Below are positions 10,180 to 51,166 of a stretch of DNA of 64,000 nt, piece by piece. Both the position numbers and the translations under genes were made by a program. This DNA is from Minisyncoccota bacterium (GTDB lineage: Bacteria > Patescibacteriota > Minisyncoccia > JAHIHE01 > JAGLIN01), in contig JBAZUT010000001.1 in assembly GCA_041661265.1 (NCBI GenBank), positions 129,854 to 193,853 of the forward strand. Direction: 5' to 3'. Positions within the stretch are counted from its first letter, which is position 1. Every line of letters begins with the position of its first letter. The notes beneath the pieces are model-generated. The model ran no database searches, was not told the DNA's origin, and saw only the letters and a program-made list of their open reading frames with translations.

Positions 10180-10429
10180 TTATTCCTTATTTTTATCGCA
10201 TTCGGTTGACCTTGCCGGACTTTTAAACTAAGCTATAAGAAGAAGCTTTTTGCTCAGTATTTTGCCGTGCAGCCTTCCCCTCCTTAGATAAGAAGGGGTG
10301 AGGGGTGGTTTGTATTTTTGAGTTTTATTCCAACCCCTCCTGACCTCCCCTTATCCAAGAGGAGGAAAAAAGCCATAAAATCAGCGAGATTCAGGCAATA
10401 CTAAATACTAAATACTTAATACCAAAGAT

Positions 10430-11500
10430 ATGGGATTTTCAGTCGGGATAGTCGGGCTTCCGAATGTCGGAAAATCGACCCTATTCAAAACATTGACCAA
10501 AAAAGAAGTGGATATTTCCAATTATCCTTTCTGCACCATCGATCCGAATATCGGGATCGTCAAAGTTCCGGACGCAAGGCTTGAGAAGCTGGCTGTTTTT
10601 TCAAAAAGCAAGAAAATTGTGCCGACTGCGATCGAGTTCGTGGACATAGCAGGATTGGTGAAAGACGCGCACAAAGGAGAAGGCCTCGGAAACAAGTTCC
10701 TCGCCAACATCCGGGAAGTGGACATGATCGCGCACATCGTCCGAGGCTTTGAAGACGGAAACATCATCCATGTCGGAAATAAGGTGGATCCGAAGAACGA
10801 TATCGAAGTGATAAACTTAGAGTTAATACTGGCCGATCTTGAAACGGTCAACAAGATGCTAAGCAAGTCCGAAAGGGACGTGAAATCCGGAGACAAGGTC
10901 GCATTGATCCAAAAAAATATTTTGGCAAGATATAAAGAAGCGCTGGAAAAGGGTGAAATGGCAAACACGGTGCAAATTGAAGAAACAGAAAAAGAAGCGG
11001 CAAAAAGCATCAGCCTTCTCACCAACAAGCCGGTACTTTTTGTTGTGAATGTAAATGAAAATCAGAAGATAGACAAAGACAAGTTTTTGCCGGAAATAGA
11101 GAACAAGATCTTCGTTCCGATCAAATTCGAGCTGGACCTTGCGGAACTTGCTGAACCGGAAGCGATTGAATTCAGAAAAGAAGCGAACATGGACAAGAAC
11201 ATTTCAAGCCTCGACGAACTTATCACCAGATGCTATGAGCTTTTGGGGCTTATCACCTTCCTCACGACAGGAGAGGACGAGACTAGAGCCTGGACGATCA
11301 AAAAAGATTCGACCGCGCCTCAGGCGGGCCGCGCCATCCACACCGATTTTGAACAAAAGTTCATCCGCGCCAGCGTCATTAATTGGCAGAAACTTCTCGA
11401 AGCAGGCTCGGAAGCAAGCGCTGTGGAAAAGGGACTCCTGCGCACCGAAGGGAAAGAATATATCGTGCAGGATGGAGATGTGATTGAATTTAAAATCTAA
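10430..11500 (+). CDS. ychF: ribosome-binding ATPase YchF (Obg-family GTPase, TGS C-terminal domain)
   Basis: N-terminus GIVGLPNVGKSTLFKTLT (G1 motif). Also DIAGLV, NKVD, and a C-terminal TGS domain ...EYIVQDGDVIEFKI. Confidence 0.95.
   Translation: MGFSVGIVGLPNVGKSTLFKTLTKKEVDISNYPFCTIDPNIGIVKVPDARLEKLAVFSKSKKIVPTAIEFVDIAGLVKDAHKGEGLGNKFLANIREVDMIAHIVRGFEDGNIIHVGNKVDPKNDIEVINLELILADLETVNKMLSKSERDVKSGDKVALIQKNILARYKEALEKGEMANTVQIEETEKEAAKSISLLTNKPVLFVVNVNENQKIDKDKFLPEIENKIFVPIKFELDLAELAEPEAIEFRKEANMDKNISSLDELITRCYELLGLITFLTTGEDETRAWTIKKDSTAPQAGRAIHTDFEQKFIRASVINWQKLLEAGSEASAVEKGLLRTEGKEYIVQDGDVIEFKI
11418..11500 (+). repeat. ychF 3'-end segment (copy 1 of an 83-bp direct repeat; att-like)
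   Basis: About 88% identical to 11988-12071. The differences are almost all synonymous third-position changes. Confidence 0.8.
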
Positions 11501-11698
11501 TTGCTACAGTGTTATATTGTTTGAATGTTGTTATTCTTCGAGCGATCCCGAATACTCGGGAGAGTCGAGAAGTTATTATCTTTTGGTTCTCGACGCAGAG
11601 TACCCTTGCTCGAACAACATTAAAATGATTTTTAACTCCATCAAATTTGACTTATTGAAACCAAAACGGTATTATTGAAATAGAAATTAAGCAAAACT

Positions 11699-11917
11699 AT
11701 GGGAAAAATTGATCTAAAAAATGTGGTCTGGAAAGAGGGCAAATACTATGTTGCTCAGTGTTTAAATGTGGATATTTCAAGTTTTGGAAAAACTAAAAAA
11801 GAAGCATTGATGAACTTAGATGAAGCTTTGGGACTATATTTTGAAGATAATAAAAAACCAAAAGTAACTAAGATAGAGAGACCGACGCTAGTAAAAATAT
11901 CCATCTGCCATGTCTAA
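11699..11917 (+). CDS. hicB: HicB-family antitoxin (UPF0150, RNase-H-like fold), short form
   Basis: WKEGKYYVAQCLNVDISSFGKTKKEALMNLDEALGLYFE matches the conserved HicB N-domain pattern. The stop overlaps the next ATG. Confidence 0.65.
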   Translation: MGKIDLKNVVWKEGKYYVAQCLNVDISSFGKTKKEALMNLDEALGLYFEDNKKPKVTKIERPTLVKISICHV

Positions 11918-12071
11918 ACTTTATTCTTCAAATTTGATCATCAAAGTCCTCCAAAAGCGAGGCTTTGTTTTTATCTCTCAGAAAGGAAGCGCCGTGGAAA
12001 AAGGACTCCTCCGCACCGAAGGAAAGGAATATATCGTGCAGGATGGAGATGTCGTAGAATTTAAAATATAG
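11911..12071 (+). pseudogene. hicA toxin remnant: N-terminal 27 codons of HicA fused in-frame to a duplicated ychF 3' end
   Basis: MSKLYSSNLIIKVLQKRGFVFISQKGS is HicA-like. It is followed directly by SAVEKGLLRTEGKEYIVQDGDVVEFKI*, a copy of the YchF C-terminus. At 53 aa it falls below the ORF-track cutoff. Confidence 0.6.
11988..12071 (+). repeat. ychF 3'-end segment, copy 2 (att-like junction)
   Basis: gccgtggaaaaaggactcctccgcaccgaaggaaaggaatatatcgtgcaggatggagatgtcgtagaatttaaaatatag, compared with 11418-11500. Confidence 0.8.
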
Positions 12072-12296
12072 AATTATTATTTTTAGATGTCATTCCCGCG
12101 AAAGCGGGAATCTATGCAACAGACGATTTGAATTTCTAATTTTTAATTTCAAATTTCTAATCAATTTTTAATGACTAAACGTCAAATGTCATTCTAAATA
12201 ATGTCATTCTGAGCCTGTCAAAGCATTGGTTCAAAATCTGTCGCATACCGCGCAACAAAAAAATTATCTTCAAATTATAAAAATAGTGTTAATAAT

Positions 12297-13220
12297 ATGC
12301 CAATACCACAAAATTTTCAGACAATTATGCTCCCCTTCCTTGAAGCTGTTTCTGATGGGGAAAGCCATAATATGAATGAAATCCTAGATGCTTTAGCTGA
12401 TTATTTTAAGCTTACCGAAGAAGAAAAAACTAGAAAATATCCAACTGGAAGCGCCTATATCTTCAACAATAAGGCGCGATTTGCTCGTTTATATTTACTA
12501 AAAGCGGGTTTATTGGAATCAACTCAAAAAAGTTTTATAAAAATTTCTGATGATGGCGCAGGAGTTTTAGCAAAAAAACCGAAGCAGGTTAATTTAAAAT
12601 TGCTTGAAACGTATCCAAAATATATTGAATTTAAGCAAAGTTTAAAAGAGAGGAATCGTGAAAGAAAGGAAACAATTGTCGAAAATACAGAGATGGAATC
12701 ACAGACTCCTCATGAACTGATTGAGTATGGCTATCAGAAAATCAAAAAAGAACTTTCACAGGAAATATTAATTCAAACGAAGCAAAGCTCGCCGCAGTTT
12801 TTTGAAAAATTGGTTGTTGAATTGCTACTCAAGATGGGCTATGGCGGATCATTGAAAGACGCCGGAAAGGCAATTGGGCAAAGTGGTGATGGTGGTATTG
12901 ATGGCATTATTAAAGAAGATAAACTTGGACTAGATATTATATATATTCAGGCTAAACGATGAGAAAATTCCATTGGTGAACCCGTAATTAGAGATTTCGT
13001 CGGAAGTCTTGCAGGAAAACATGCGAATAAAGGCGTATTTATAACTACATCTCATTTTACAAGTGGTGCTACTGATTATGTTAAGAATATTCCTCATAAG
13101 GTTATTTTAATTGACGGTGAGATGCTGACCGACCTTATGATCGAAAATAACATTGGGGTATCAAATGTAAGCGCTTATGAAATTAAAAGAATAGATTCTG
13201 ATTATTTTATTGAAGAATAA
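12297..13220 (+). pseudogene. Mrr-family type IV restriction endonuclease (Mrr_N winged helix + Mrr catalytic domain) interrupted by one in-frame TGA
   Basis: The N-terminal domain ends ...GIDGIIKEDKLGLDIIYIQAKR. A TGA at 12960-12962 is followed in the same frame by ENSIGEPVIRDFVGSLAGKHANKGVFITTSHFTSGA... through a TAA at 13218-13220. A Trp (TGG) is expected at the stop position (QAKRW). Confidence 0.7.
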
Positions 13221-13232
13221 ATCCCTCCCCTA

Positions 13233-13380
13233 TCAGTTCAAGTTTTTGCACCTGAACCATAAATTTCTTTTCGAATGTCATTCCGGACTTGCCTGCTCGC
13301 CTCTGGGAGGATCTGGAATCTACCCATAATCACGTTGCTATCTATTTAGTGGATTCCTGCTTTCGCAGGAATGACAGCAT
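13233..13380. repeat. MITE-like repeat block (left flank of zinc-ribbon gene) with terminal inverted motif atgtcattc / gaatgaca
   Basis: gaaccataaatttcttt also occurs at 13703-13720. atgtcattc at 13275-13283 is inverted at 13369-13377. A hairpin attcctgc-tttc-gcaggaat lies at 13353-13372. Confidence 0.5.
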
Positions 13381-13423: not shown

Positions 13424-13612
13424 ATGAAGCTAAAATCCACAATCAAATGCCCGCAATGCGGGTTTGAAAAAGAAGAAACAATGCCCCAAGACGCCTGCCA
13501 GTATTTTTATATTTGTTCAAAATGCCAAAAACGCATCGAGCCAAAACCAGGCGATTGCTGCGTGTATTGCTCTTATGGTTCCGTCAAATGTCCAATGAAA
13601 CAGGTGAAATAA
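13424..13612 (+). CDS. Cys-rich zinc-ribbon small protein (10 Cys in 62 aa)
   Basis: CPQCG...C..Y.C.KC...GDCCVYCSYGSVKCP contains several CxxC pairs. The RBS is weak. Confidence 0.45.
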   Translation: MKLKSTIKCPQCGFEKEETMPQDACQYFYICSKCQKRIEPKPGDCCVYCSYGSVKCPMKQVK

Positions 13613-13620
13613 GCATAGAT

Positions 13621-13725
13621 TTTCTCTGCCGGTTCAGGTCTTCGCACCTGCCTTCCGGCCCGCTTCGCCGGAGGCTGACAGCGAGGCGAGCAGCCAGGCT
13701 TGAACCATAAATTTCTTTGCAAGTG
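13621..13725. repeat. repeat block related to 13233-13272 (right flank of zinc-ribbon gene)
   Basis: ggttcaggtcttcgcacctg...gcttgaaccataaatttcttt corresponds to cagttcaagtttttgcacctgaaccataaatttcttt with about 60 bp of extra internal sequence. It shares gaggcgagcag with 13290-13300 in inverted orientation. Confidence 0.5.
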
Positions 13726-13756: not shown

Positions 13757-14242
13757 ATGAATAACAGAACGATTAAGCTATTATTTGTTTGCACCGATAA
13801 CATAGGCCGAAGCCTGATGGCCGAATATCTTTTGAGAAACTGGCTGGAAAATAACAACCGGCATGACATCGAGGTTTCCTCTTGCGGGACAAATGCGACA
13901 AGCGACACCAGCTCATTTTGCATGGATCACATTGGCAAATTGGATGAAATGGGAATAGATGCATCGCGGCACAAAAGAACCCAAATATCAAAAGAAATAT
14001 TGGCACGAAGCGACATCATCATTGCCATGGATGAATCCCACCGAGACTGGGTACGGGAGAAATTCAACAAAGAAGTCATGTTGTATAATGAAATATGCAA
14101 GAATGAAAAAACTTCGATCAGGATCAATCCGCCCGGCTCAGCCGGTCCGCTATCCAATCGATTGTTGAAGGTGTTTGAGTATATAGATAAGTCCATTCCT
14201 GACTTAGTTACTTCAATTGATAAGATAAAAATAAACTTATGA
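13757..14242 (+). CDS. low-molecular-weight protein-tyrosine phosphatase / ArsC-type arsenate reductase family
   Basis: LLFVCTDNIGRSLMAE contains the CX5R(S/T) P-loop. At 161 aa it is a typical LMW-PTP length. Confidence 0.8.
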   Translation: MNNRTIKLLFVCTDNIGRSLMAEYLLRNWLENNNRHDIEVSSCGTNATSDTSSFCMDHIGKLDEMGIDASRHKRTQISKEILARSDIIIAMDESHRDWVREKFNKEVMLYNEICKNEKTSIRINPPGSAGPLSNRLLKVFEYIDKSIPDLVTSIDKIKINL

Positions 14243-15033
14243 CGAAATTCGCCATATTAACCGATATTCATCTGGGCCCGGAAGGCCGCTTCAGGGGCAT
14301 TCTTCGCAAAATAAACAAGGATGTGAAAATATTTTTGGACGATTTTGTCGAGGAAATGAATGGGAATGTAAAACCTGAATTCACGGTTGTCCTCGGAGAT
14401 CTGGTCGAGGACGACAATGAGGCCAATGACAGGAATAATGTCGGCTACATCGTAAAGTTGCTGAAAAAGTTGAAGTGTCCTGTCTATTATGCTGCCGGAA
14501 ACCATGATCTTAGGAACATTTCAGAAAAAGATCTGGCGGAATTGTTTCATTATGAAAAGCTATACTATTCATTTGATTCCGGCAATCTTCATTTCATCGT
14601 TCTATTTTCGAGGGCATCGAAAGATGAAACGATCAGGATCTCGGATGAACAAAAGGAATGGCTTCAGAAGGATCTGGATTCGACGGACAGAAAATGCGTT
14701 GTTTTCGTCCATCATGGATTAGCCGACCAGGACCTGACGGGAAACCCATGGTTTGAAAAAAAACCTGAATACTGCCTTATTGAAAACAGAAAAGAGATCA
14801 GGCACATAGTCTCCGAATCAAAAAAAGTTATTGCGGTTTTCAACAGCCACTTGCATTGGGACAAGAAAGACTCTCATGACGGTATCCCCTATTTCACGAT
14901 CCAGTCTTTGGTTGAAAATGAGGGCGACAATGGATTAGCAAGCGAAACGCACGCAGTGGTCAATATTGTTGACGATAAGGTTGACGTTGAGGTGAAGGGT
15001 AATTATGCAAAAAACTTTTCACATCAAAGCTGA
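14239..15033 (+). CDS. calcineurin-like metallophosphoesterase
   Basis: AILTDIHLGPEG, VLGDLVED and AAGNHD match the phosphoesterase motifs D-x-H, GD and GNH(D/E). Overlaps the upstream gene by 4 bp. Confidence 0.8.
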   Translation: MTKFAILTDIHLGPEGRFRGILRKINKDVKIFLDDFVEEMNGNVKPEFTVVLGDLVEDDNEANDRNNVGYIVKLLKKLKCPVYYAAGNHDLRNISEKDLAELFHYEKLYYSFDSGNLHFIVLFSRASKDETIRISDEQKEWLQKDLDSTDRKCVVFVHHGLADQDLTGNPWFEKKPEYCLIENRKEIRHIVSESKKVIAVFNSHLHWDKKDSHDGIPYFTIQSLVENEGDNGLASETHAVVNIVDDKVDVEVKGNYAKNFSHQS

Positions 15034-21181: not shown

Positions 21182-22237
21182 TTACAATGCCGCATTCTTC
21201 ACTTCTTCTTTTACGGCTTTGTATATTCCGGCGACCAGCTCACTCGTCAGCTTTGGATTTTCTTTGAGGTATTTCCTGCTTGCTTCATATCCCTGTCCGA
21301 GTTTTTCGGATCCGTAGTTATACCAGGCGCCGCCCTTGGAAACTATATTGTATTTTACCGCTGTGTTCAGAACGTCTCCGAAATATGCTATCCCCTCGTT
21401 GTGCATCAGATCGAATTCGGCGATCTTGAATGGAGGAGCGATCTTGTTCTTGACCACTTTGGCCTTGACCCTGCTTCCGATCACATTGTCGCCCTGCTTT
21501 ATTTGGGCGGACCTTCTCACTTCTATCCTCACCGAAGAATAGAATTTGAGCGCGTTCCCTCCGGTCGTCGTTTCGGGATTTCCGAATACGACTCCGATCT
21601 TCATCCTGATCTGGTTTATGAAAATAACGGTGGCATTCGATTTGTGGACGATGCTGGTGAGTTTCCTGAGCGCCTGGCTCATGAGGCGGGCCTGAAGACC
21701 CATATGAGAGTCGCCCATCTCACCTTCGATCTCCGCTTTCGGAGTCAGCGCCGCCACCGAGTCGATCACGATCAGATCCACTGCGCCGGACCTGACCAGA
21801 GCTTCAACGATCTCGAGAGCCTGCTCTCCGCTGTCCGGCTGCGAGATGATAAGATCGTTTATCTTGACGCCTATCCTTTTGGCATATTCCGGATCAAGAG
21901 CATGCTCCGCATCCACAAACGCCGCTATGCCTTTCTTTTTCTGGAGCTCCGCGATGACATGCAGTGTCAGCGTTGTCTTTCCGCTGGCTTCCGGACCATA
22001 CACCTCGATTATCCTTCCTTTCGGGATCCCTCCGCCGAGAGCTATATCCAGCGAGATCGATCCTGTCGGAATAAAATCGATATCCATGGTCCTTGCTTCT
22101 CCAAGCTTCATGATGGACCCTTCTCCGAACCTGCCCTTTATTTCATCAAGCGTGTCATTGATGATCTTGTCTTTCTTGTCTTTTTCTTCTGTCGACTTCT
22201 TTTCTTCCGCCAGCTTCTTTTTTTCTTCTTTTGCCAT
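21182..22237 (-). CDS. recA: recombinase RecA (with ~25-aa KE-rich N-terminal extension)
   Basis: Walker [21 protein letters not shown], and L2 region [35 protein letters not shown]. Confidence 0.95.
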
Positions 22238-26199: not shown

Positions 26200-29100
26200 C
26201 TATTGTTTCTTCGCGTAATCCTTTGAAACCCATCCTTCAATTCCCTTTGCGGTTTTGATCTTGAACCAATTTCCACTTTCGCCCAGAATGTCATACGTCT
26301 CGCCTTCTTTGGTAAATGCTAGGGTTTTTCCAAGGGTGGAATTTACAGACCTCACCCTTAACCACTTCGTGGTTATGATCAAGGTTCCTGTTGCAGAAGG
26401 CGCCGGTTCAACAGTTGCAGATGCGCCGGCAACAGAAGTGTATGAACCCAGGATCCAGCCTGTCTTTCCGGAAGGAGTGGTGATCTTATACCAGCCGTTA
26501 TTCTCTTCAAGAACGGAATAGTTTTCGTTCTTTTTTACAAAGCCCAATACTTTTCCGGTGGTACTATTCACAGAGCGGATGCGGAGAGTGGTGGCGGTGA
26601 TTGTAGCAACCCTTGTCGATTCTTCGACCGGAGTTCCTTCCGCATAAGTGCCAAGCTCGGCAACGCTTACTACTTTCACATCGGACCATTTGTAGCCGGC
26701 GGCATTGAATTCGGCCGCGGACTTCACATGCTTTCTAGTGTTGTTGTGGATGACATAAACTTTGTTATCCCCTTCAGCCCTGAGAAGCGTTACGGATCCG
26801 ACAGTCTTCACTACAGTTGCAGAAACAACCTTCACGTCAGACCATTTATATCCTCCTGCATTGAACTCTTCAAGCGTCTGGATCCAGACCTGGTTCCCGT
26901 TCTTCACAACATATACCTTCGGGGAATCGGAATATTTGAACAATGTCCCTTCAGGCTCAGTGGTCGGAGTCGAGACTGCGGGAGTTTCGGTTGTCGGAGT
27001 CTCGGTGATTGGAGTTGCAGCTTCACCTAAAGTTATCGAATCAGAAATTACAGATGACTGAACACCGGCCGAGTCTTTAAATTTGGCATATACGGTTTTC
27101 GTTCCGTTTCCGGAAGTCAATGTCCATCCCTTTGATGTCGCAAATGTTTCCCAGCTTACTCCATCGAAATTGGAAGTGTTGGAAATCGCCATATGCGTCG
27201 CGTTCGTGGCCGTGAGTGTCAATGTGACAGCCGCACCAGCCGTGCTTGCCGCACCTCCTGCAACTGAGATCGAAGCGCCAGTCACCGCCGTTATAGCCGG
27301 AGCTGACACTCCACCACCACCGGCAGGAGCAGCAGCTGCTGAAGTCGTAGCTGTAACTTCGCTTGAAGGCAAGGATTCACCTGAGGAATTCAGGGCTGTT
27401 ATCTTGTAATAATACGGGGTCGATGCGGAAAGTCCGGTATCAGTGTAGGAAGTGGTGGACCCGGATGAAACCGTGGGCTCGCTTCCAATCCTTGCGAATG
27501 TTCCGCCGGAAGAAGCGCTACGATAGATGTCATAGCTCGTCGCGCCGCTTGTCACGGTCCAGGAGAGATTGATCGAGCTTGAGCTTGCTGCAGTCGCTGA
27601 CAGTCCCGACGGAGTTGAAGGCGCTCCGGTTGTGGATGAAGTGGGCGCATAAAGCGAGAAGTGGCTTGTAGGAGCGGAGATAAGGACCGTGGACACATTG
27701 GACAACGTGTCGGAAGGAGTCAGGCCTGCAGTACTGGAATCCATTACTGTTCCGCTGGCATCTTTGTATGTGATGGTGCTTGGCAAAGTTACCCAGTTTG
27801 AATTGGTCTCATCCCAATAGGACATTTTGAGCATGTCCGCTTCCGCTTTGGTATTGATAGAGGCATCACTGCCTGACGGAGTCGCGGCCATTTCCGCTTT
27901 GCTGTAGGTCATTTCCACAGTTACGGAATCATTCAAATTTGTGATGGGATTGCCATCGGAGTCGGATGCCTTTATTTCTTTGGCCGCATTGATATAGGTT
28001 CCAGTGGCGGAATCATACTTCTTTACCGGTTTAGATGAACTTGTCTGGCGGACATTGTTCGTTTCTTTCGACTGTATATTTCCGGCGGATGTCGAGCTGC
28101 CGAGCGCGTTCGCGGGAACCGTAATCTTCACGCCCGCAGTGGTGTCTTCAAGAGTTCCTCCGCTGGCCGGTGTTATCGGTTTGGATTTAGGCGCTGAAAG
28201 AGTCACCTGAGTCGTCAAAGTGATGTCCTTTCCTGTTACGGATGCAGTCGTAATCGCGATCGGGTTTGAGGTATAAGCTGCTTCCGCATAGCCCTCTGCT
28301 ACGCCATACACTTTCCAGCTTCCGGCAGTAACATATAAAGTATAGTTACCGCTAGTATCGGCTTGCGTTCCGGCAAATCCGCCTCCTTGTTTTTCAGCTC
28401 GGACAAAAGCGTTAGCAGCCCCGGTTGCACCGATCTTAATTTGTCCCTGAATGGTTAAGGAAGTTGCGGCAAGCGTGTAAGTTCCGCTGGCCAGGTTTCC
28501 GTCGGTCACACCGGTATTTACCGTAATATTGGCCAGATCACTGACATAACCCGGTTTCATGGCCTGCACAAAATAGTCCGAAGAGGAGTTTACGACTTGC
28601 AAGGAGAAGGCTCCGCTGGCATTGGTCGAGGTCCCGAAGTGCACGCCCGTTGTCGGATCGCCGATCTCAACCCAGGCATTCTGGAGATTGTTGGTGCCAT
28701 CTGTCACGGTGCCGGACACTGTTCGCAGCGTAGGCAAGGTCACCGTGAGACCTTCATCACTATTTACAGTCAACAATTCAGATGAACTATTATAAGTCGT
28801 ATTACCATCCGTCGCGGCAATGGTCAAGGCGGATTTGGGCATGCCGGGAACATCAACTCTAACCGTATACGATCCGTCGGGAAGAGACATCGTAGCCGTC
28901 GTTTTATTCGTGATCCTCATCTTATTCCCGACTCCGGTGTTATTGAAAACCTCAATGAACGCTTCCGAAACGCTTGAGGAGAATGTGAATGTGATTGTTC
29001 TCGTGGCGCCAACCGTTATATCTTTATTGCTGATATTTCCCGCAACATTGAACGAAGCGAGCGGCAGCAATTCGCCGATATTCGGAGCAAATGCCTTGAT

Positions 29101-32100
29101 CACATATCCGTTTCCTTCCGGCGCCTTAAAGCTGTATGTTCCGTCCACTCCGCTTATTGTTTCATTAAAGGTTCCGTTTCCCATCAGTTTCACAAACACG
29201 TTAGACAGCTCTTCTCCGTTGTTATAACTTGAGCTTCCATTCGCGTCTTTGTACACCCGGCCTTGGATCGTATAGAAATTTCCGGTTCCGGTCAGGGAAG
29301 GCGAGAAATTAATATTTGAAGCGCTTGAAGTGGTGATGGTCACCGTTTGTTCTGCCAGCTGTCCGTATTGCGGCAGGAATGATCCCGCTCTCCAGGTGCC
29401 GGCGGAAACATACAATGTATAATTTCCGGAATTATCGGTCATGGCATTGGCATTTCCCGGACCATCGGTGCGATAAGCATACACTGAGGCACCCTGCACG
29501 ACGTTGGTTCCGTCGATTACCTTGCCGGAAATCGTATAATCCGGTTTAGCGAGCTTCAGAACGAAAGTCGTTAACGCCGTAGCGGGAGCGATTCCAACAG
29601 ACGCTCCATCGATGTAGAGATAATTGGTTGCATGTCCGCCTTTGGTCGTATCGCTGTTTACAACTACCGACACTTCTTTCGAAGAAGGCATGCCCGGCAC
29701 AAACGCGCCAACCACATAACTGCCATCAACTACGTTCAAAGTGAAATTACCGCTCGAATCGGCCTGAGCATGGGTTCCGAATCCGCCGGTTGGCGAATAG
29801 CCGTATACTTCGGCATTCGCGATGACTTTGTCGGATCCGTCTTTCACCACGCCTTTGATCGTCTTATCGGAAGAGGTTAAGGTAAACGCTATCGTTCCAT
29901 CATTCGCCGTTCCATTATTTTCCGTAACCGTCGCTCCGCTCACATTCACATTCACGGGCTGAGGAGGAAGATAATTCGGCGTTGGAGGCGGACCGGACAT
30001 CGGGCCTTTGGGCATTTGAGGGCCGGTTCCCACGAACCACTGTCCGTCGGAAAGATACAAAGTGGCGGATCCGGATCCTCCTCCGTTCAACGTTATTTGT
30101 TTGACCCTGAATCCGGTAGACGAACCGGCAAAAACATCCAATGGCGTATTGGCCGGACCCGTGATATTCACTGTAACCGCCGTTCCGCTTGAAGCGCTCG
30201 TGAGAGTAAAGTCATAGGTCGTAGGAGTTGATGTAACGCGCACCATTTCCGGCATAGATTTGCCAAGATAATCCGCTCCGTCCAAAGTAATGGTTTGATC
30301 GGTGAATAGCATGTAATCTCCGCTGGGCAAATTGGGGAAACTATAAGCTGCCGAACCGCCGCTGAAAGTAGCAGACGCGGCTTCCATGGGACCTGTCATT
30401 GGCGACATCAGGAAAACATTCATCGTGCCGGCGTTGGCGCTGCCCGCGGTGATCGTGCCCTGCAAAGTGTTGCTTCCGCCGGACTGAATAAAGAATGGCT
30501 GCGACGTTAATGATTCAATAACGGTTGAACCGTCGGCTGACTTAGTCTTGATGTCGACGGTGTAGCCCGAAGTGTCAAATCCTTTCGGCACGGTCGAGTT
30601 CTTTATGCTGGCTACATCGATTCTTAAGAAATCAAAGCCCGTGACATTTGTAGCCGCCGAAAGATAGATGGTTACCGTTCTGGCCGAAGTGTTAACCACT
30701 ACGCCGTCACCTGCAAGTCCTCCCTGGGCCGTTCCGGTGTCGTCGGCATTGAGAGTTCCCGAACAGGAAGCGCCTGTCGGAGCTCCGGCAGTTGCGCATT
30801 TGAATGTCGGTGCGCCTGTGCCGGGACCGTTCAGATCCGTTCTCATCGGACTGTTAACATCTTGCTTGGCATTCGTTACGTCAAAACCGCTCGGGAAAGT
30901 GAGAACGATCGATCCGCCCGCCGGAATTTGGCTGGAGATCGGAAGATCGACTCCGAAAATCGTGGTCTGCCCGGCCATCATGTTGAATGGCTTCACCATG
31001 ATCGGCGGCGCAAACCCGAATGTGCTTGAAGAGAAATTGGTCGGCACGAATCCTCCGCCATTATCAAACGCGCTTCCTCCCATGGCCATTGGCCCTAGAG
31101 CGCCTTTGGTGGTCATGCTGTTTTGGATCGTAGCGCGGGCGGAATTTCCGGTTCCTCCCATGGCCGTACCAGACAAATCTTTAGCGCCAGTGCCGAGGGC
31201 TACATATAATTCCTGCCCCGCTGCAACGCTAAGATTCAATCCTTCGATCATTACGGTGTTGGTAACAGAATCATACTTGAAGGTGGCGCTGGTCAGAGGC
31301 ACTGCGGTTCCCGCAATTGCCGGATCGAATACAGCCGTCCCGTATTTCACCGTGGCGTAATTAGACGGATTTATAACACTGGCCGCCCAATTAAGCGAAT
31401 CCGTGGCTTTTGCAGAATTCATGGGCTCGGAGAATGAAATTGCAGCGGCATAATCATCAGCGTTCATAAAAGTGACTGTCGGCACAGAGGAATCCGCCGC
31501 ACCGGTGGTGAAATTTCGCGCCACCGCAGTGGCTATGGCAAATCCGTTAATTCCGGTTACGCCCGTAGTAACATTTATCGTGTAAGTCGTATTCGGATTT
31601 AGCACTGATTTCGGTATGAAATAAGCTTGCCGGTCCAGCCCTCTGTAATCCATCGTGCCATTGATCGCCGTCGAGCCGATAGAAACATAAACCGTGGAAG
31701 TGGTGATGGTCGAAACATCCATATCCTTGCTGAAGCTCATGCTTATCGCCCCAATATTGACCGGCACGGCAGTGGCGCCATTGTCAGGATATGTTCCCAA
31801 TACCGTAGGTGCGATAATATCAGACGTGGTGCCGGTTTTGAAATCCGACATGAACATTGGGAAGGATGCCTGATCGGGAGGAGCGATGGTCATGCCATTC
31901 GCAGCCTTTGCCCCGCCCAGGACCTTCAAACGATAAGATGTGCTGGCGGCAAAAGTTCCGGAGTTATAGCCCGCCGCCAAAGTGACCGTGGAAACCATCT
32001 TGGCGTTATCAAGAGAGACGGTGCTAATCGCGCTTGAAGAAACATCCGTTTCCGTGGTGCCGCTTACAGTATATAATTTCACATTGTTCTTTAAGAGATA

Positions 32101-35100
32101 TCCTCCCCCGTCATCCGCCATCGGATCAGAGAAATTGATGACGATTTTCATGTTAAGCGGCACGTCAAACGAACCGGGAGCGGGCATTACTCCGTTCACA
32201 TGCGGAGGCACAAACGCGCCTGATCCGAAAGTTCCACCGCCTTGCAGAACTCCTCCGGAAAATGTCGCAGTCGAACCTGTCGTAAAGAAAAATACATAGC
32301 TTCCATCGGACTGATTGCCCTGGATCGCGTTGCCTGCCGTATCTGTCACATTGGGAGTGATCTTTACCGCAATATTCTTATTGTCGCCAAAAGTGTTTCC
32401 GCCCGTAAATGACCAGACGGCCAGATTTGAATCCGGAGGCAACGGCGCGGATGGCGGAGTAGTATAATATGCCCAAGCGCCTTTGGTGCTCGTGATATTG
32501 GTCAACTCACCGGTGGACATATTGACTTCATTGACCGTCATATTTCCGGCGGCCGTAATGGAAGTCTGACTCATTTCTTTGTTAAATGCTGCAAAAATCT
32601 TGAAATTAGTATCTCCGCCAGGAATTCCAGTTGATCCATCCATTGGTCCGTTCCATTTTATGCGCGGATTGGTGAGATCGCCTCCAAAGCCTCCTCCCCC
32701 GCCCTGTCCGAGCTGAAAGTTAATGCCGGAAGCGCCCGCGGGAATTCCATTCATCATACGATCAGCAAAACCTTCTTTAAAAGCAACCAGATCATAGGTG
32801 CCGGCAAATAATTTACCAGCGCCAATGGTGAAATTGCCGTCAGCGCCTGTTGCCGCCGAGAGGAATCCGGTGCCTTCGGCAAAAATATAAGCGCCTGCAA
32901 GATTGTTCGGCGTAGGAGTGGCTGAATCTTTTATGTTTCCCATGATATTGGTGCTGTTTCCTGCAGTAACAGAGGTCAATTGGAACGGATTACCGCTCAT
33001 ATCTTTCATCTGCTGGGTATTTGTTTCGTCAGTAGCTTCGAGGTAATACCTCACTATAGTATTTGCCGCTCCAACTGTTGCGGATGGAATCACATGTCTA
33101 TAAAATCCTCCTCCCAAGTGTGAGCCATTATGATTGGAATCGCTCACGTATGTCGGAGTACATCCGGATCCGGCGCAGTAATAAAGCTTGCTGGATAGAG
33201 CCGGCGTTGAAGAAGCGTTGGCAAAATTATCCATTACGCGGACAATGACATCAAGATTGGTGCTGGCCGCCGCCTGGAAAATAGGGCGGTGCATGATGTT
33301 TGGCGGCATCGTATCGGAAGCGGCTGTGACGGTCGTAAAACCGCTGGTGCCGGTTGTTTCCAATGCAGTTAAACTCCCCACGTTCGCAGAAGTTATAGTA
33401 GACATTAGTTCCGCATAGGTCTTTACGCGCCAATAATAAGCAGTATTCGGATTAAGAGGAGCTGGTTGTGTCAAGATCAGGTATTGTCCCGCCCCATAGT
33501 TTACGTTGCAGCTTGAAGCATTGCAATGACTCGCGGTTTTGGGAAAAGTGTAATCCCAAACCGTGGTACCAGTAAAATCAGAAGCGGTATTTACAGTCAG
33601 TCTATAACTATTAAATGTGGCATTGTTTGAAGGGCCGAAATTGAAGTTTGGCGGAATAGGAATATTAGTGGCATTGTTCGACGGAACAAACAAGCTCAGA
33701 CCGCTTCCAGAACTTGAATATACACCGAAGCCATTCGGCATTGTCACGACTTCGCCGCCTGTCGTGACTCTGACATCGCGACTTCCATCTGTGGCATCAG
33801 CCGTGATTGTGACTGGGAAACTTAAATTAGTAGCACCAGTGGAGCTGACCGTACCAGCTGTCGCATTTGTGTCGTTAGTACTAGTACCGCTAAGCAAGAA
33901 TTGCACTGTGCTTGAAGCTGTAAAATGAGTATTTGAACCGGTTATCGTAACAGTAAAAGGAGAAGAGCCTTTTGCTCCGCCTCCTGGAGTCACCATGTTA
34001 ATCCCGGGAATTCCTCCGCCGCCGGAAGGCGCGACGTTGATCTGGAACATTTTCTCTCCATCTACCGCGCTATCCGTAACCTTGATTCTTATTGTGTAGC
34101 TTCCCGGCGCATTGGCAACGGTACCCGTTATTTTGCCGCCATCAGCTCCGCTTGCCACGAGCGTCAAACTAAGACTTGCCAAAACGTCGATGGCGTATTG
34201 ATCAGCCGCAGCCCATGTGTATGTGCCTGTGGCACCGCCAGTCGCCTCCAAAGCTACCAAAGGAGTAGTGGTATTATAAACCGTTCCAACTGTAGTTGAA
34301 GGAATATTGGTAGTGGTAATCGTAGGCGCATTGGTTAAATTGACGGCTAAAGTGCCTACCACATTTCCACCCATATCGACAATGGCATTATTTGCCGCGG
34401 CGATCGTACTTATACCATTTCCGCCATCCGCAAAATCGCCAGAATCCAAATTTCCATTTAAAGTAACGGTCGCAAATTCCATTCCGGGATTATGAGTAAC
34501 GCTTGAAATCGTGTGTCCGCCTGTTGTTCCATTGTCGATAAAAGTAAACGAAGCCGCAACCAAACTTCCACCGCCTGATTTTTGCACCGACTTACTGAAC
34601 CTTACATTCACAGCAGCAGAGCCTGAAGCTCCGGTGGCTTTTACGATCGTCGCAGGAGCGGTGTCCGCCTTCAAATCATTGGTAGTGAAAGTGGAAGCGC
34701 CATTATTTCCGTCAGAAGTAACCACGCCAGTAGTCGCCGGAATAGCGGCAATAATACGATCATCATCGGCAATAGTGCCTGATGTTTTAATTACCACATA
34801 GAAAAATGTTTCGGTCCCATTAGCTAACGCCACCGGAGTAGCCGGCGTTAAAGTGATGCTGCTGGAAGACCAGGCCGGAGATCCTCCCAAAGTTACAACC
34901 GCATCTCCCGCACCAAACATGCCGGTATTTCCGCCTCCGGCATCATCGTATAAAGCAACGCCTGAAGTATTATTAGTGGCAATCGCCGCCAAGTCAGAAG
35001 TGCCAAACCCCGTACCGCTGAAATTCACAGTAACTGAAGTTAAAGTTTGACCGGCTTGCGACGCGGTTACGCCGACTCTTAACATAGCAGTCGCTACTGA

Positions 35101-35295
35101 ACTTGCCGGTATCGGAGAACCGGGCATCTGGGTTGGCATTCCCTGGGTTGAAAAAGTAAAAGTCGAAGCCGCCCTCGCCGCCGGCACGAGAACCAAGAAC
35201 TGCAAACCCAATGACCACACCAATGTGGCCACGAGGAGAAAAGACGCAAAAAATTTCTTCGCGCCCTTTTTTATTTCTTTCCTTGTTTTTTTCAT
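26200..35295 (-). CDS. giant secreted surface protein (3031 aa): signal peptide, many Ig-like / carboxypeptidase-regulatory-like beta-sandwich repeats, FN3 domain, duplicated GYKWSDVKVVS module, two C-terminal SH3b domains
   Basis: Signal peptide FFASFLLVATLVWSLGLQFLVLVPAARAAS. Recurrent SGNYTLYVSAGTW / DSSGNFTLNVVDGSY (CarboxypepD_reg-like). FN3 at LSATAASSSSINLSWTVTSGATSYDIYRSA...YYYKITALNSSGES. Two SH3b domains at GWILGSYTSV and GWVSKDY. AAGGAGA RBS. Confidence 0.85.
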   Translation of the reverse strand: MKKTRKEIKKGAKKFFASFLLVATLVWSLGLQFLVLVPAARAASTFTFSTQGMPTQMPGSPIPASSVATAMLRVGVTASQAGQTLTSVTVNFSGTGFGTSDLAAIATNNTSGVALYDDAGGGNTGMFGAGDAVVTLGGSPAWSSSSITLTPATPVALANGTETFFYVVIKTSGTIADDDRIIAAIPATTGVVTSDGNNGASTFTTNDLKADTAPATIVKATGASGSAAVNVRFSKSVQKSGGGSLVAASFTFIDNGTTGGHTISSVTHNPGMEFATVTLNGNLDSGDFADGGNGISTIAAANNAIVDMGGNVVGTLAVNLTNAPTITTTNIPSTTVGTVYNTTTPLVALEATGGATGTYTWAAADQYAIDVLASLSLTLVASGADGGKITGTVANAPGSYTIRIKVTDSAVDGEKMFQINVAPSGGGGIPGINMVTPGGGAKGSSPFTVTITGSNTHFTASSTVQFLLSGTSTNDTNATAGTVSSTGATNLSFPVTITADATDGSRDVRVTTGGEVVTMPNGFGVYSSSGSGLSLFVPSNNATNIPIPPNFNFGPSNNATFNSYRLTVNTASDFTGTTVWDYTFPKTASHCNASSCNVNYGAGQYLILTQPAPLNPNTAYYWRVKTYAELMSTITSANVGSLTALETTGTSGFTTVTAASDTMPPNIMHRPIFQAAASTNLDVIVRVMDNFANASSTPALSSKLYYCAGSGCTPTYVSDSNHNGSHLGGGFYRHVIPSATVGAANTIVRYYLEATDETNTQQMKDMSGNPFQLTSVTAGNSTNIMGNIKDSATPTPNNLAGAYIFAEGTGFLSAATGADGNFTIGAGKLFAGTYDLVAFKEGFADRMMNGIPAGASGINFQLGQGGGGGFGGDLTNPRIKWNGPMDGSTGIPGGDTNFKIFAAFNKEMSQTSITAAGNMTVNEVNMSTGELTNITSTKGAWAYYTTPPSAPLPPDSNLAVWSFTGGNTFGDNKNIAVKITPNVTDTAGNAIQGNQSDGSYVFFFTTGSTATFSGGVLQGGGTFGSGAFVPPHVNGVMPAPGSFDVPLNMKIVINFSDPMADDGGGYLLKNNVKLYTVSGTTETDVSSSAISTVSLDNAKMVSTVTLAAGYNSGTFAASTSYRLKVLGGAKAANGMTIAPPDQASFPMFMSDFKTGTTSDIIAPTVLGTYPDNGATAVPVNIGAISMSFSKDMDVSTITTSTVYVSIGSTAINGTMDYRGLDRQAYFIPKSVLNPNTTYTINVTTGVTGINGFAIATAVARNFTTGAADSSVPTVTFMNADDYAAAISFSEPMNSAKATDSLNWAASVINPSNYATVKYGTAVFDPAIAGTAVPLTSATFKYDSVTNTVMIEGLNLSVAAGQELYVALGTGAKDLSGTAMGGTGNSARATIQNSMTTKGALGPMAMGGSAFDNGGGFVPTNFSSSTFGFAPPIMVKPFNMMAGQTTIFGVDLPISSQIPAGGSIVLTFPSGFDVTNAKQDVNSPMRTDLNGPGTGAPTFKCATAGAPTGASCSGTLNADDTGTAQGGLAGDGVVVNTSARTVTIYLSAATNVTGFDFLRIDVASIKNSTVPKGFDTSGYTVDIKTKSADGSTVIESLTSQPFFIQSGGSNTLQGTITAGSANAGTMNVFLMSPMTGPMEAASATFSGGSAAYSFPNLPSGDYMLFTDQTITLDGADYLGKSMPEMVRVTSTPTTYDFTLTSASSGTAVTVNITGPANTPLDVFAGSSTGFRVKQITLNGGGSGSATLYLSDGQWFVGTGPQMPKGPMSGPPPTPNYLPPQPVNVNVSGATVTENNGTANDGTIAFTLTSSDKTIKGVVKDGSDKVIANAEVYGYSPTGGFGTHAQADSSGNFTLNVVDGSYVVGAFVPGMPSSKEVSVVVNSDTTKGGHATNYLYIDGASVGIAPATALTTFVLKLAKPDYTISGKVIDGTNVVQGASVYAYRTDGPGNANAMTDNSGNYTLYVSAGTWRAGSFLPQYGQLAEQTVTITTSSASNINFSPSLTGTGNFYTIQGRVYKDANGSSSYNNGEELSNVFVKLMGNGTFNETISGVDGTYSFKAPEGNGYVIKAFAPNIGELLPLASFNVAGNISNKDITVGATRTITFTFSSSVSEAFIEVFNNTGVGNKMRITNKTTATMSLPDGSYTVRVDVPGMPKSALTIAATDGNTTYNSSSELLTVNSDEGLTVTLPTLRTVSGTVTDGTNNLQNAWVEIGDPTTGVHFGTSTNASGAFSLQVVNSSSDYFVQAMKPGYVSDLANITVNTGVTDGNLASGTYTLAATSLTIQGQIKIGATGAANAFVRAEKQGGGFAGTQADTSGNYTLYVTAGSWKVYGVAEGYAEAAYTSNPIAITTASVTGKDITLTTQVTLSAPKSKPITPASGGTLEDTTAGVKITVPANALGSSTSAGNIQSKETNNVRQTSSSKPVKKYDSATGTYINAAKEIKASDSDGNPITNLNDSVTVEMTYSKAEMAATPSGSDASINTKAEADMLKMSYWDETNSNWVTLPSTITYKDASGTVMDSSTAGLTPSDTLSNVSTVLISAPTSHFSLYAPTSSTTGAPSTPSGLSATAASSSSINLSWTVTSGATSYDIYRSASSGGTFARIGSEPTVSSGSTTSYTDTGLSASTPYYYKITALNSSGESLPSSEVTATTSAAAAPAGGGGVSAPAITAVTGASISVAGGAASTAGAAVTLTLTATNATHMAISNTSNFDGVSWETFATSKGWTLTSGNGTKTVYAKFKDSAGVQSSVISDSITLGEAATPITETPTTETPAVSTPTTEPEGTLFKYSDSPKVYVVKNGNQVWIQTLEEFNAGGYKWSDVKVVSATVVKTVGSVTLLRAEGDNKVYVIHNNTRKHVKSAAEFNAAGYKWSDVKVVSVAELGTYAEGTPVEESTRVATITATTLRIRSVNSTTGKVLGFVKKNENYSVLEENNGWYKITTPSGKTGWILGSYTSVAGASATVEPAPSATGTLIITTKWLRVRSVNSTLGKTLAFTKEGETYDILGESGNWFKIKTAKGIEGWVSKDYAKKQ

Positions 35296-50757: not shown

Positions 50758-51027
50758 TTACTCCCACTTTCCCCAGCGTCCTTCGATAAGTTTTAGCTTC
50801 TTCTTTCGGCTCCAATCTTTTACTTGTATTTCTTTTTTTCTTGCCATCTCGAGATTTTCATATTCTTCCAGATAAACTATTTTCTTTGGCTTATGTTTTG
50901 ACGTAAATTTAGATCCTGATCCTGAAATGTGCTGAGTCCATCTTTGATCTGGCTTCCACGTCATTCCAGTATAATACAAACCATCTTCACATTCTATAAT
51001 ATATACGTACCATTTCCATTTTTGCAT
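50758..51027 (-). CDS. GIY-YIG nuclease-domain protein (YhbQ/Slx1-like small stand-alone)
   Basis: WYVYIIECEDGLYYTGMTWKPDQRWTQH contains the GIY...YTG motif. 89 aa. Confidence 0.7.
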   Translation of the reverse strand: MQKWKWYVYIIECEDGLYYTGMTWKPDQRWTQHISGSGSKFTSKHKPKKIVYLEEYENLEMARKKEIQVKDWSRKKKLKLIEGRWGKWE

Positions 51028-51034
51028 AACATTT

Positions 51035-51140
51035 ACAAAACTTTTTATTGTTCGAGTGAGCGATAATCCGCAAGTCGAGAACTCTTGCTATCGTCGAGAC
51101 GGAAACCGGCAGATCGCTTGAAGAATAAACGTTACTTATA
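51035..51140. repeat. imperfect repeat, right flank of GIY-YIG gene
   Basis: See 50600-50757. Confidence 0.5.
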
Positions 51141-51166
51141 ATTTTAACTTTTATTGGAAAAACTGT

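Follow-up and report, generated by a model that had tools for sequence, protein, structure and literature searches.

A diverged ychF 3′ stump beside a degraded hicBA cassette as a candidate recombination scar in a Paceibacterota genome

Results

We analysed a 64,000-nucleotide stretch of the genome of an uncultured Minisyncoccota bacterium (assembly GCA_041661265.1, contig JBAZUT010000001.1, positions 129,854 to 193,853; hereafter the window), in which an intact ychF gene is followed by the remnant of a small hicBA toxin-antitoxin cassette and, at 11988–12071, by a diverged second copy of the ychF 3′ end. With moderate confidence, we favour the view that this ychF-like block represents what remains of a second ychF allele, a stump that homologous together with illegitimate recombination, and not a dedicated integrase, left behind and that deletions later eroded. 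The original prediction, made from the sequence alone, had described the locus as a scar of DNA acquisition beside ychF, which held, and had taken the block for the attachment site (attP) of an integrative element that targets the 3′ end of this gene; the observation itself was confirmed and its interpretation is partly supported.

The duplicated ychF tail

The ychF gene (10430–11500, forward strand) is intact. Its 356-aa product is covered over its full length by the Pfam models MMR_HSR1 (PF01926, the G domain; 83 bits) and YchF-GTPase_C (PF06071, the C-terminal domain; 116 bits), and a database protein 100% identical to it is the YchF of a Candidatus Paceibacterota metagenome-assembled genome. 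A repeat search revealed the sole long repeat of the region, namely a pair of 88-nt segments (11412–11499 and 11983–12070) with 89% identity and a spacing of 571 nt. Alignment in codon register assigned to this pair two 84-nt tails, i.e., copy 1 (11417–11500, forward strand; 27 sense codons plus TAA), which ends the intact gene, and the ychF′ stump, or piece B (11988–12071, forward strand; ychF nt ~988–1071 with a TAG stop). As had been noted in the sequence, the stump forms the 3′ part of a 53-aa open reading frame (ORF; 11910–12071, forward strand), in which HicA residues 1–27 are fused in frame to YchF residues 330–356.

While the repeat is real, the earlier count of nine differences, all in third codon positions, needs correction: the two tails differ at ten of 84 nt, nine of them third positions (including the change from TAA to TAG) and one a first position. 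The latter belongs to the single amino acid replacement, Ile to Val, which involves two nucleotide changes (ATT to GTA) and hence cannot result from a third-position change alone. That all other differences are synonymous was borne out by Nei-Gojobori counting (8 synonymous and 1 non-synonymous; pS 0.45, pN 0.016, dN/dS 0.023, dS ~0.7). The excess of synonymous over non-synonymous changes was significant (Fisher's test, p=1e-5), and the chance of finding at least nine of ten differences at third positions was P = 3.6e-4. The second copy has thus diverged synonymously and not at random. Given this low dN/dS and a dS of ~0.7, the two tails are alleles from different lineages, each diverged as functional ychF coding sequence in the way that had been proposed. 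With 74/84 identical positions they are as distant as related species are from one another, the tail of the window ychF sharing 68–74 of 84 positions with those of three relatives (L086–L088). The longest identical run within the repeat measures 26 nt, which is compatible with the core of an attachment site, and no core was demonstrated.

Copy 1 is followed by 128 nt of native-type ychF 3′ flank, as judged by alignment to relatives (11501–11628, forward strand). The first 27 nt of this flank are kept after ychF in the related loci L088 and L171, as well as after a ychF stump in L169, and the remainder aligns with the flank in L086. The G+C content of the interval 11500–13300 is 30–36%, as compared to 42–50% in core genes.

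Co-existing haplotypes of the locus

The arrangement is not an assembly artefact, because five independent assemblies of the population from five samples are concordant: the window itself, an ENA contig (L001), two Logan contigs (L002 and L003) and a JGI contig (L170), with SRR6484324, SRR18595301, ERZ27249449 and JGI 3300037810 as read or assembly sources. L002 and L003 match the window base for base (0 mismatches) up to position 12046, where the contigs end within the second copy; both ychF copies are present in L001, and the second is seen in L170.

L001 (113 kb) differs from the window by one single-nucleotide polymorphism (SNP) in 13 kb, plus 197 extra bp at the spot of the fusion. These are flanked by two 13-nt direct repeats (TCAGAAAGGAAGC) lying 197 bp apart, one within hicA (encoding S-Q-K-G-S) and the other in ychF-derived DNA, of which the window retains a single copy as the deletion junction (11978–11990, forward strand). 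The deleted form is represented by the window, L002 and L003, and the undeleted form with intact hicA by L001 and L170. As a strain differing by one SNP in 13 kb lacks the deletion, the hicA′::ychF′ fusion is the product of a very recent 197-bp deletion, through microhomology or slippage, for which the natural population remains polymorphic. The truncation of hicA had been ascribed to reduction of an integrated element, an account that this deletion replaces.

Just upstream of the tail block, L001 contains a 28–29-nt exact match to ychF nt 727–755 of L087 (piece A; alignment score 56, compared with a maximum of 28 in shuffles), which is joined out of frame to ychF nt ~990–1071. This implies an out-of-frame internal ychF deletion of ~232 nt, and the deletion is found in every assembly covering that spot. 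Since piece A lies beside the tail block, the stump is the decayed remnant of a longer ychF fragment. In the undeleted haplotype, it is out of frame and untranslatable as YchF. Shuffle-controlled alignment detected no ychF homology in the 33 nt between the L001 hicA stop and piece A. A candidate reading of these 33 nt as ychF codons ~226–236 ('FVSVKI') was not significant in this alignment and was rejected, so that only nt 727–755 were counted as piece A. The presence of this additional, non-contiguous ychF piece makes the block unlike an attP, and two results given below also speak against the attP assignment: no integrase was detected, and hicBA occurs elsewhere without a ychF tail.

These data also bear on whether the second tail arose by duplication of the ychF 3′ end within the genome and subsequent divergence, or through a chimeric assembly of two strains. 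The repeats are direct and close to each other, and several strains co-occur in the samples, which speaks for an origin of this kind. However, the concordance of five assemblies and the deletion junction shared by the window, L002 and L003 argue against a chimera, and an untranslatable stump in which nearly all differences are synonymous, at a dS of ~0.7, is unexpected for a decaying paralogous fragment. We regard both origins as highly improbable.

The hicBA cassette

Homology of the window to the hicBA cassettes of L169 and L171 (91–93% at the nucleotide level) begins at position 11629. It marks the start of the cassette remnant (11629–11990, forward strand), which consists of a promoter, hicB and hicA codons 1–27. 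A promoter-like site (TTGACT-17-TATTAT, 11647–11675), conserved among hicBA units, precedes the two small genes, and the start of hicA overlaps hicB by 8 nt (11910–17). The hicB-like antitoxin gene (11699–11917, forward strand; 72 aa) is intact, in line with the original prediction, and its ORF is identical in the sister strain L001. Its product matches Pfam DUF7387 at 26.8 bits, below the cutoff of 27.9, and shows a weak similarity to a HicB structure in the PDB (9svk_B, E=0.62); there was no NCBIfam match, and the AlphaFold2 single-sequence model was of low confidence (pLDDT 55).

The HicA piece encoded in the window scores 16.9 bits against PF07927 (cutoff 27) over residues 10–29, and its catalytic His is deleted. 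The intact HicA of L001 (P0121; 71 aa) carries PF07927 and a GSH at residues 26–28, and matches the PDB entries 1whz, 4c26 and 6g26, its His28 falling on the conserved His. This residue is required for HicA RNase activity (PMC6159526). The 197-bp deletion removed the catalytic His along with the C-terminal two-thirds of HicA, and would have inactivated the toxin and orphaned the antitoxin gene hicB.

The complete unit (promoter plus two genes, ~496 bp, 91–93% nucleotide identity) is also present in other contexts, namely after a truncated metallophosphoesterase (Metallophos) gene in L169 and after a GDCCVxC gene in L171. In L169, the one case with sequence beyond hicA, no ychF tail follows the cassette. 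The metallophosphoesterase gene is full length in the window (14239–15033) and cut to 73 codons in L169 (3249–3470); the cut lies just upstream of the hicBA start, and represents another illegitimate junction made by the hicBA cassette.

ychF loci in related genomes

Close relatives were collected by protein search and by exact-protein look-ups of YchF, and YchF proteins 72–93% identical to that of the window proved abundant. Upstream of ychF, synteny (PGM, HAD hydrolase) is kept in these relatives; the downstream region differs in every lineage. It holds Trypsin_2, HNH and NUDIX genes in L087, a cation-efflux gene in L088, NUDIX and GDCCVxC genes followed by hicB in L171, small ORFs and a HicB-like gene in L173, and a toxin-antitoxin pair of genes for an excisionase-family helix-turn-helix (HTH) protein and Doc in both L169 and L172.

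The search for empty sites suggested along with the original prediction succeeded at the level of related species: in L086 and L088 (YchF 93% and 90% identical at the amino acid level), the ychF tail, its flank, hairpins and an 'aatttctaat' motif are consecutive, with neither hicBA nor a stump between them. This empty-site-like state was observed between related species only, not within the same species. Relative to L086, window positions ~11625–12142 are extra; the L086 flank was placed by BLAST blocks, as global alignment could not position the large gap. The loci L087, L171 and L173 are likewise without a stump.

Copy 1, with its flank, is collinear with L086, and the stump, with its flank, hairpin and motif, follows the order of the genuine ychF tail and its hairpin and motif in L088. 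Both tail units thus look native, and because of this collinearity displacement of a resident tail is no less likely an origin of the stump than import. The original prediction had the second copy imported; as it is the stump, and not the tail of the intact gene, that parallels the L088 tail, import is no likelier than displacement. Sliding-window identity between the window and L086–L088 gave no clear breakpoint from which the foreign ychF copy could be told. At third codon positions, the ychF gene of L169 has an identity to that of the window of 0.46–0.57 over nt 1–900 and of 0.74 over nt 900–1071, which shows that the ychF 3′ end is mosaic between these lineages. YchF scans of GTDB species genomes and JGI metagenome contigs returned only relatives of at most 61% identity, with 0 tail duplications.

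Three YchF homologues (P0117–P0119) are 401 aa long, with a ~45-aa insert (…LNPSLKGEERQ…) in a variable middle region. This insert has a candidate likeness to translated palindromic repeat DNA of the kind found at window 10262–10365, just upstream of ychF.

Other ychF stumps and the search for mobile elements

Among more than 170 YchF loci examined, stumps were found in three lineages only, i.e., that of the window, L169 and L174. The L169 stump (AVEKGLLRTEGREYIVQDGDVSEFKI, then a stop) lies 63 nt past a Doc cassette and is followed by the native 27-nt flank. No ychF homology was detected in the 63 nt upstream of it, and the DNA to its left is unrelated to that left of the window stump; between the two stumps there are 14 nucleotide differences, 11 of them at third positions. 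In L174, a decayed 52-nt ychF tail starting at nt ~1021 directly follows the Doc stop codon.

The Doc cassette comprises genes for an 88-aa excisionase-family HTH protein and Doc (death-on-curing), and is located at L169 1687–2398, L172 3886–4552 and L174 114–825. It directly follows ychF in L169 and L172, and the L174 contig begins just upstream of the cassette, leaving ychF outside. The HTH protein matches the excisionase-family DNA-binding domain TIGR01764 with 37.9 bits (cutoff 28.8). The cassette shared by L169 and L172 is 89% identical, and the adjacent ychF tails are ~81% identical, no closer than the genes overall. This argues that the ychF tail does not travel with the Doc cassette.

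Scanning ~44/46 of the ORFs of at least 70 aa in the window gave no Pfam match to an integrase (Phage_integrase), transposase or Resolvase, and no such gene was present among the called genes of related loci, in keeping with the earlier statement that no integrase remains. The intact, integrase-bearing elements with a ychF 3′ fragment that the original prediction had envisaged were not encountered in these loci either, nor in wider collections: an IMG/VR scan with the YchF C-terminus turned up no ychF tail, and a plasmid search gave no match. A tblastn search of phage databases yielded 22 matches (51–65% identity) to unannotated records of 'Bacteriophage sp.', Listeria and Staphylococcus, and this lineage was not among them. 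RecA is encoded in the window (21182–22237).

In a generalised form of the original prediction, the pattern of cassettes with ychF stumps might instead mean that the ychF 3′ end, from about codon 330, serves as the attachment site of small site-specific cassettes or of a degraded integrative element. Here, a ychF-tail mimic carried by the cassette would restore the gene and displace the resident tail, the recombinase having been lost or acting in trans. Such a scheme would account for the association of a cassette with a ychF stump in three lineages (hicBA in the window; HTH_17 plus Doc in L169 and L174), for the 5′ boundary common to two of these stumps, for the native 27-nt flank retained by the L169 stump as by an attR, for the excisionase-family match of the Doc-cassette HTH and for the empty sites in relatives. 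We nevertheless consider it rather unlikely. Neither the 64 kb nor the related loci yielded an integrase, IMG/VR held no ychF tail and plasmids no match; the piece A of the undeleted haplotype shows that the gene-derived DNA is not one contiguous block; the 5′ end of the L174 stump differs (nt ~1021); hicBA occurs without a tail in other contexts (L169, and also the L171 context); and the tails next to the Doc cassettes of L169 and L172 are less similar (~81%) than the cassettes themselves (89%).

The islet downstream of the stump

Past the stump, a hairpin repeat (GTCATTCCCGCGAAAGCGGGAATC...; 12088–12123) forms the left arm of an inverted pair (inverted repeat I1) around a cassette with an Mrr restriction endonuclease gene, and is 81% complementary to the right arm at 13341–13376. 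A homologous hairpin follows ychF in L088. Next comes an AT-rich intergenic motif ('aatttctaattttt...aatgac'; 12131–12194, forward strand), conserved after ychF in relatives with 86–93% identity, whose counterparts lie at L169 2642–2705, L086 6187–6241 and L088 5406–5446. The mrr gene (12297–13220, forward strand; Pfam Mrr_N and Mrr_cat), part of a swappable cassette, contains one in-frame TGA (12960–12962), and beyond it are genes for a GDCCVxC zinc-ribbon protein, a low-molecular-weight (LMW) phosphatase and a metallophosphoesterase.

The JGI contig L170 is identical to L001 through window position 12046. From 12047 onward, it carries five substitutions typical of functional ychF tails, an overwrite that covers the last 25 nt of the stump; a different 1.3-kb cassette follows, and the sequences rejoin at 13347 within the right hairpin arm, which marks the right boundary of the swap. 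L170 records a homologous crossover within the stump, by which the Mrr cassette downstream of it was exchanged. Position 12046 is also precisely where the two Logan contigs end, as expected if both downstream variants occur in those samples. The ychF-stump block has no coding function, and its sole demonstrated activity is that of a homology patch for later cassette-exchange crossovers.

The exchanged segments span window 12072–13346 and L170 405–1745, and are bounded by the ychF stump on the left and the hairpin GTGGATTCCTGCTTTCGCAGGAATGAC on the right. The L170 cassette, which is unrelated to the Mrr cassette, encodes proteins of 199, 67 and 82 aa with no NCBIfam match.

Overwriting of this sort could likewise have maintained one old, ancestral stump that was repeatedly renewed by recombination with incoming functional ychF tails, the flanking cassettes being swapped around it; such renewal would keep its divergence synonymous in appearance. 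L170 displays exactly such a partial overwrite. Moreover, the window and L169 share the stump boundary as well as the order stump, hairpin, motif, LMWPc and Metallophos, and the differences between their stumps fall largely (11/14) in third positions. Yet this account calls for many recombination events, leaves piece A directly upstream of the L001 stump unexplained, and is at odds with the stump-free state of L086, L087, L088, L171 and L173 from the same clade. We hold it to be improbable.

Several further features of the islet and the window were recorded. Mrr is encoded in a single 307-codon frame, with the TGA at a position where Trp is expected (IYIQAKR*EN) and present in L001 as well; the gene is probably a TGG-to-TGA pseudogene. 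The 62-aa GDCCVxC protein (13424–13612) matches its (seleno)protein family with 97.5 bits, has Cys in place of Sec, and is encoded ahead of hicB in L171. Members of a G+C-rich hairpin repeat family (GTCATTCC...GGAATGAC type) are located between nearly all islet cassettes and at the swap boundaries (window 12088–12123, 13274–13320, 13341–13376 and 13620–13700; L088 5265–5400; L169 2585–2620); a search with a strict hairpin pattern returned 0 matches, the pattern being too strict. These repeats resemble repetitive extragenic palindromic (REP) elements and could be terminators or recombination patches. Elsewhere in the window, a gene for a small GIY-YIG protein adjoins that for a 1533-aa protein with a Peptidase_S74 (endosialidase chaperone) domain (50758–55768), a domain typical of phage tail fibres, and a 3031-aa Ig/SH3/fn3 surface protein is encoded at 26200–35295.

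Discussion

According to the origin that we favour for the stump, DNA from a related Paceibacterota lineage, comprising ychF, its 3′ flank and the hicBA cassette, would have recombined into the locus. At one end, the conserved ychF region would have provided the homology, and the other end would have been closed by an illegitimate join within the second ychF copy, i.e., by homology-facilitated illegitimate recombination (HFIR; described in PMC3240628) or an equivalent single crossover. This would have left the locus with one complete ychF and the cassette, along with a 3′ fragment of the ychF gene that had been displaced. This fragment would then have shrunk, first through the out-of-frame internal deletion of ~232 nt, and later, in the window strain, through the 197-nt deletion between the 13-nt repeats, which would have fused hicA codons 1–27 in frame to the stump and orphaned hicB.

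The locus has the features of a displacement scar, in that the 3′ stump of a second allele lies downstream in the same orientation and has diverged like a functional allele. Homologous exchange in the anchor region is indicated by the crossover in the L170 stump and the mosaic ychF 3′ end of L169 and the window, and the window encodes RecA. The DNA may plausibly have entered by natural transformation, because the candidate phyla radiation (CPR) shows conservation of com genes throughout and Saccharibacteria have proved to be transformable (PMC10633639).

Several points weigh against this origin. Neither a donor nor a sister genome of >95% identity without the block was found; we therefore infer the direction of the event and HFIR itself, as we do the identity of the resident copy and the entry by transformation. 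HFIR is rare in experimental systems (PMC5361080). Furthermore, L169 and L174 also carry a toxin-antitoxin cassette (HTH plus Doc) and then a ychF tail stump, and the L169 stump begins at the same ychF coordinate as piece B (nt ~990, the same codon), a coincidence that random illegitimate joins predict only about 1–5% of the time. The shared boundary could be due to chance, to a hot spot or site-specific step, or to a single old stump that was overwritten.

A bolder possibility, which we think doubtful, is that in this Paceibacterota clade the 3′-terminal ~80 nt of ychF (codon ~330 onward) are a dedicated site at which small toxin-antitoxin and defence cassettes that lack an integrase dock time and again. 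The cassettes would be inserted by a trans-acting site-specific recombinase, or by RecA with a portable ychF-tail arm, each stump then docking the next. If true, this would amount to an integron-like cassette system on the 3′ end of a housekeeping gene in a CPR bacterium.

In the best reading, the locus is a recombination scar of an ordinary kind, set in an islet of variable toxin-antitoxin and defence content, and no new kind of element. As such, it illustrates in nature how small toxin-antitoxin and defence cassettes come and go in streamlined CPR genomes, at a hot spot whose anchor is a conserved housekeeping gene. Its co-existing haplotypes show acquisition with a displaced stump, erosion by microhomology deletion, toxin loss with an orphaned antitoxin, and a cassette swap. 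The locus also gives genomic, if indirect, evidence that species-level relatives within Paceibacterota, a group without genetics, recombine homologously.

Some genomic islands and prophages enter the 3′ ends of tRNA, tmRNA or protein genes, with an attP that carries a replacement 3′ end. The ychF locus is similar in that a direct repeat of the gene end flanks the insert, the gene is intact, the repeat copies stem from different lineages and relatives have empty sites. Unlike in such islands, no integrase was detected, the insert measures just ~0.5–0.7 kb, and the two copies match at 89% of positions, with 26 nt as their longest identical stretch; in addition, the undeleted haplotype contains an extra, non-contiguous gene piece and the cargo is found elsewhere without the repeat. 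A pneumococcal prophage that adjoins ychF, inserted between dnaN and the promoter of ychF, possesses an integrase as well as a 14-bp attB (PMC6375853). In that case, too, ychF neighbours a mobile element, but the prophage is not at the ychF 3′ end.

In decaying type II toxin-antitoxin loci, the toxin is inactivated first and the antitoxin is orphaned. The same order is seen here, with the His and C-terminal two-thirds of HicA lost and hicB and its promoter intact; in contrast to typical decay, the inactivation was caught as a polymorphism (one SNP in 13 kb) and produced a chance in-frame chimera with ychF. Integron arrays are reminiscent of the islet in their small, promoter-proximal cassettes, several of them toxin-antitoxin units, with a short repeat after each at one hot spot. 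The islet, however, has no IntI, attI or attC-like structure, and its repeat follows some cassettes only and is a gene fragment.

In rhs, contact-dependent inhibition (CDI) and type VI secretion system (T6SS) effector-immunity arrays, displaced 3′ ends and orphan modules are known, for which HFIR was proposed (Kirchberger et al. 2017, PMC5361080). As in those arrays, a module anchored by a conserved upstream gene region would have displaced the resident copy, and the old 3′ end would lie downstream in the same orientation, at a recurrent hot spot and with no integrase. The ychF locus differs from them in its anchor, which is a fully restored housekeeping GTPase gene and not a polymorphic toxin, in its toxin-antitoxin cargo and in its CPR host.

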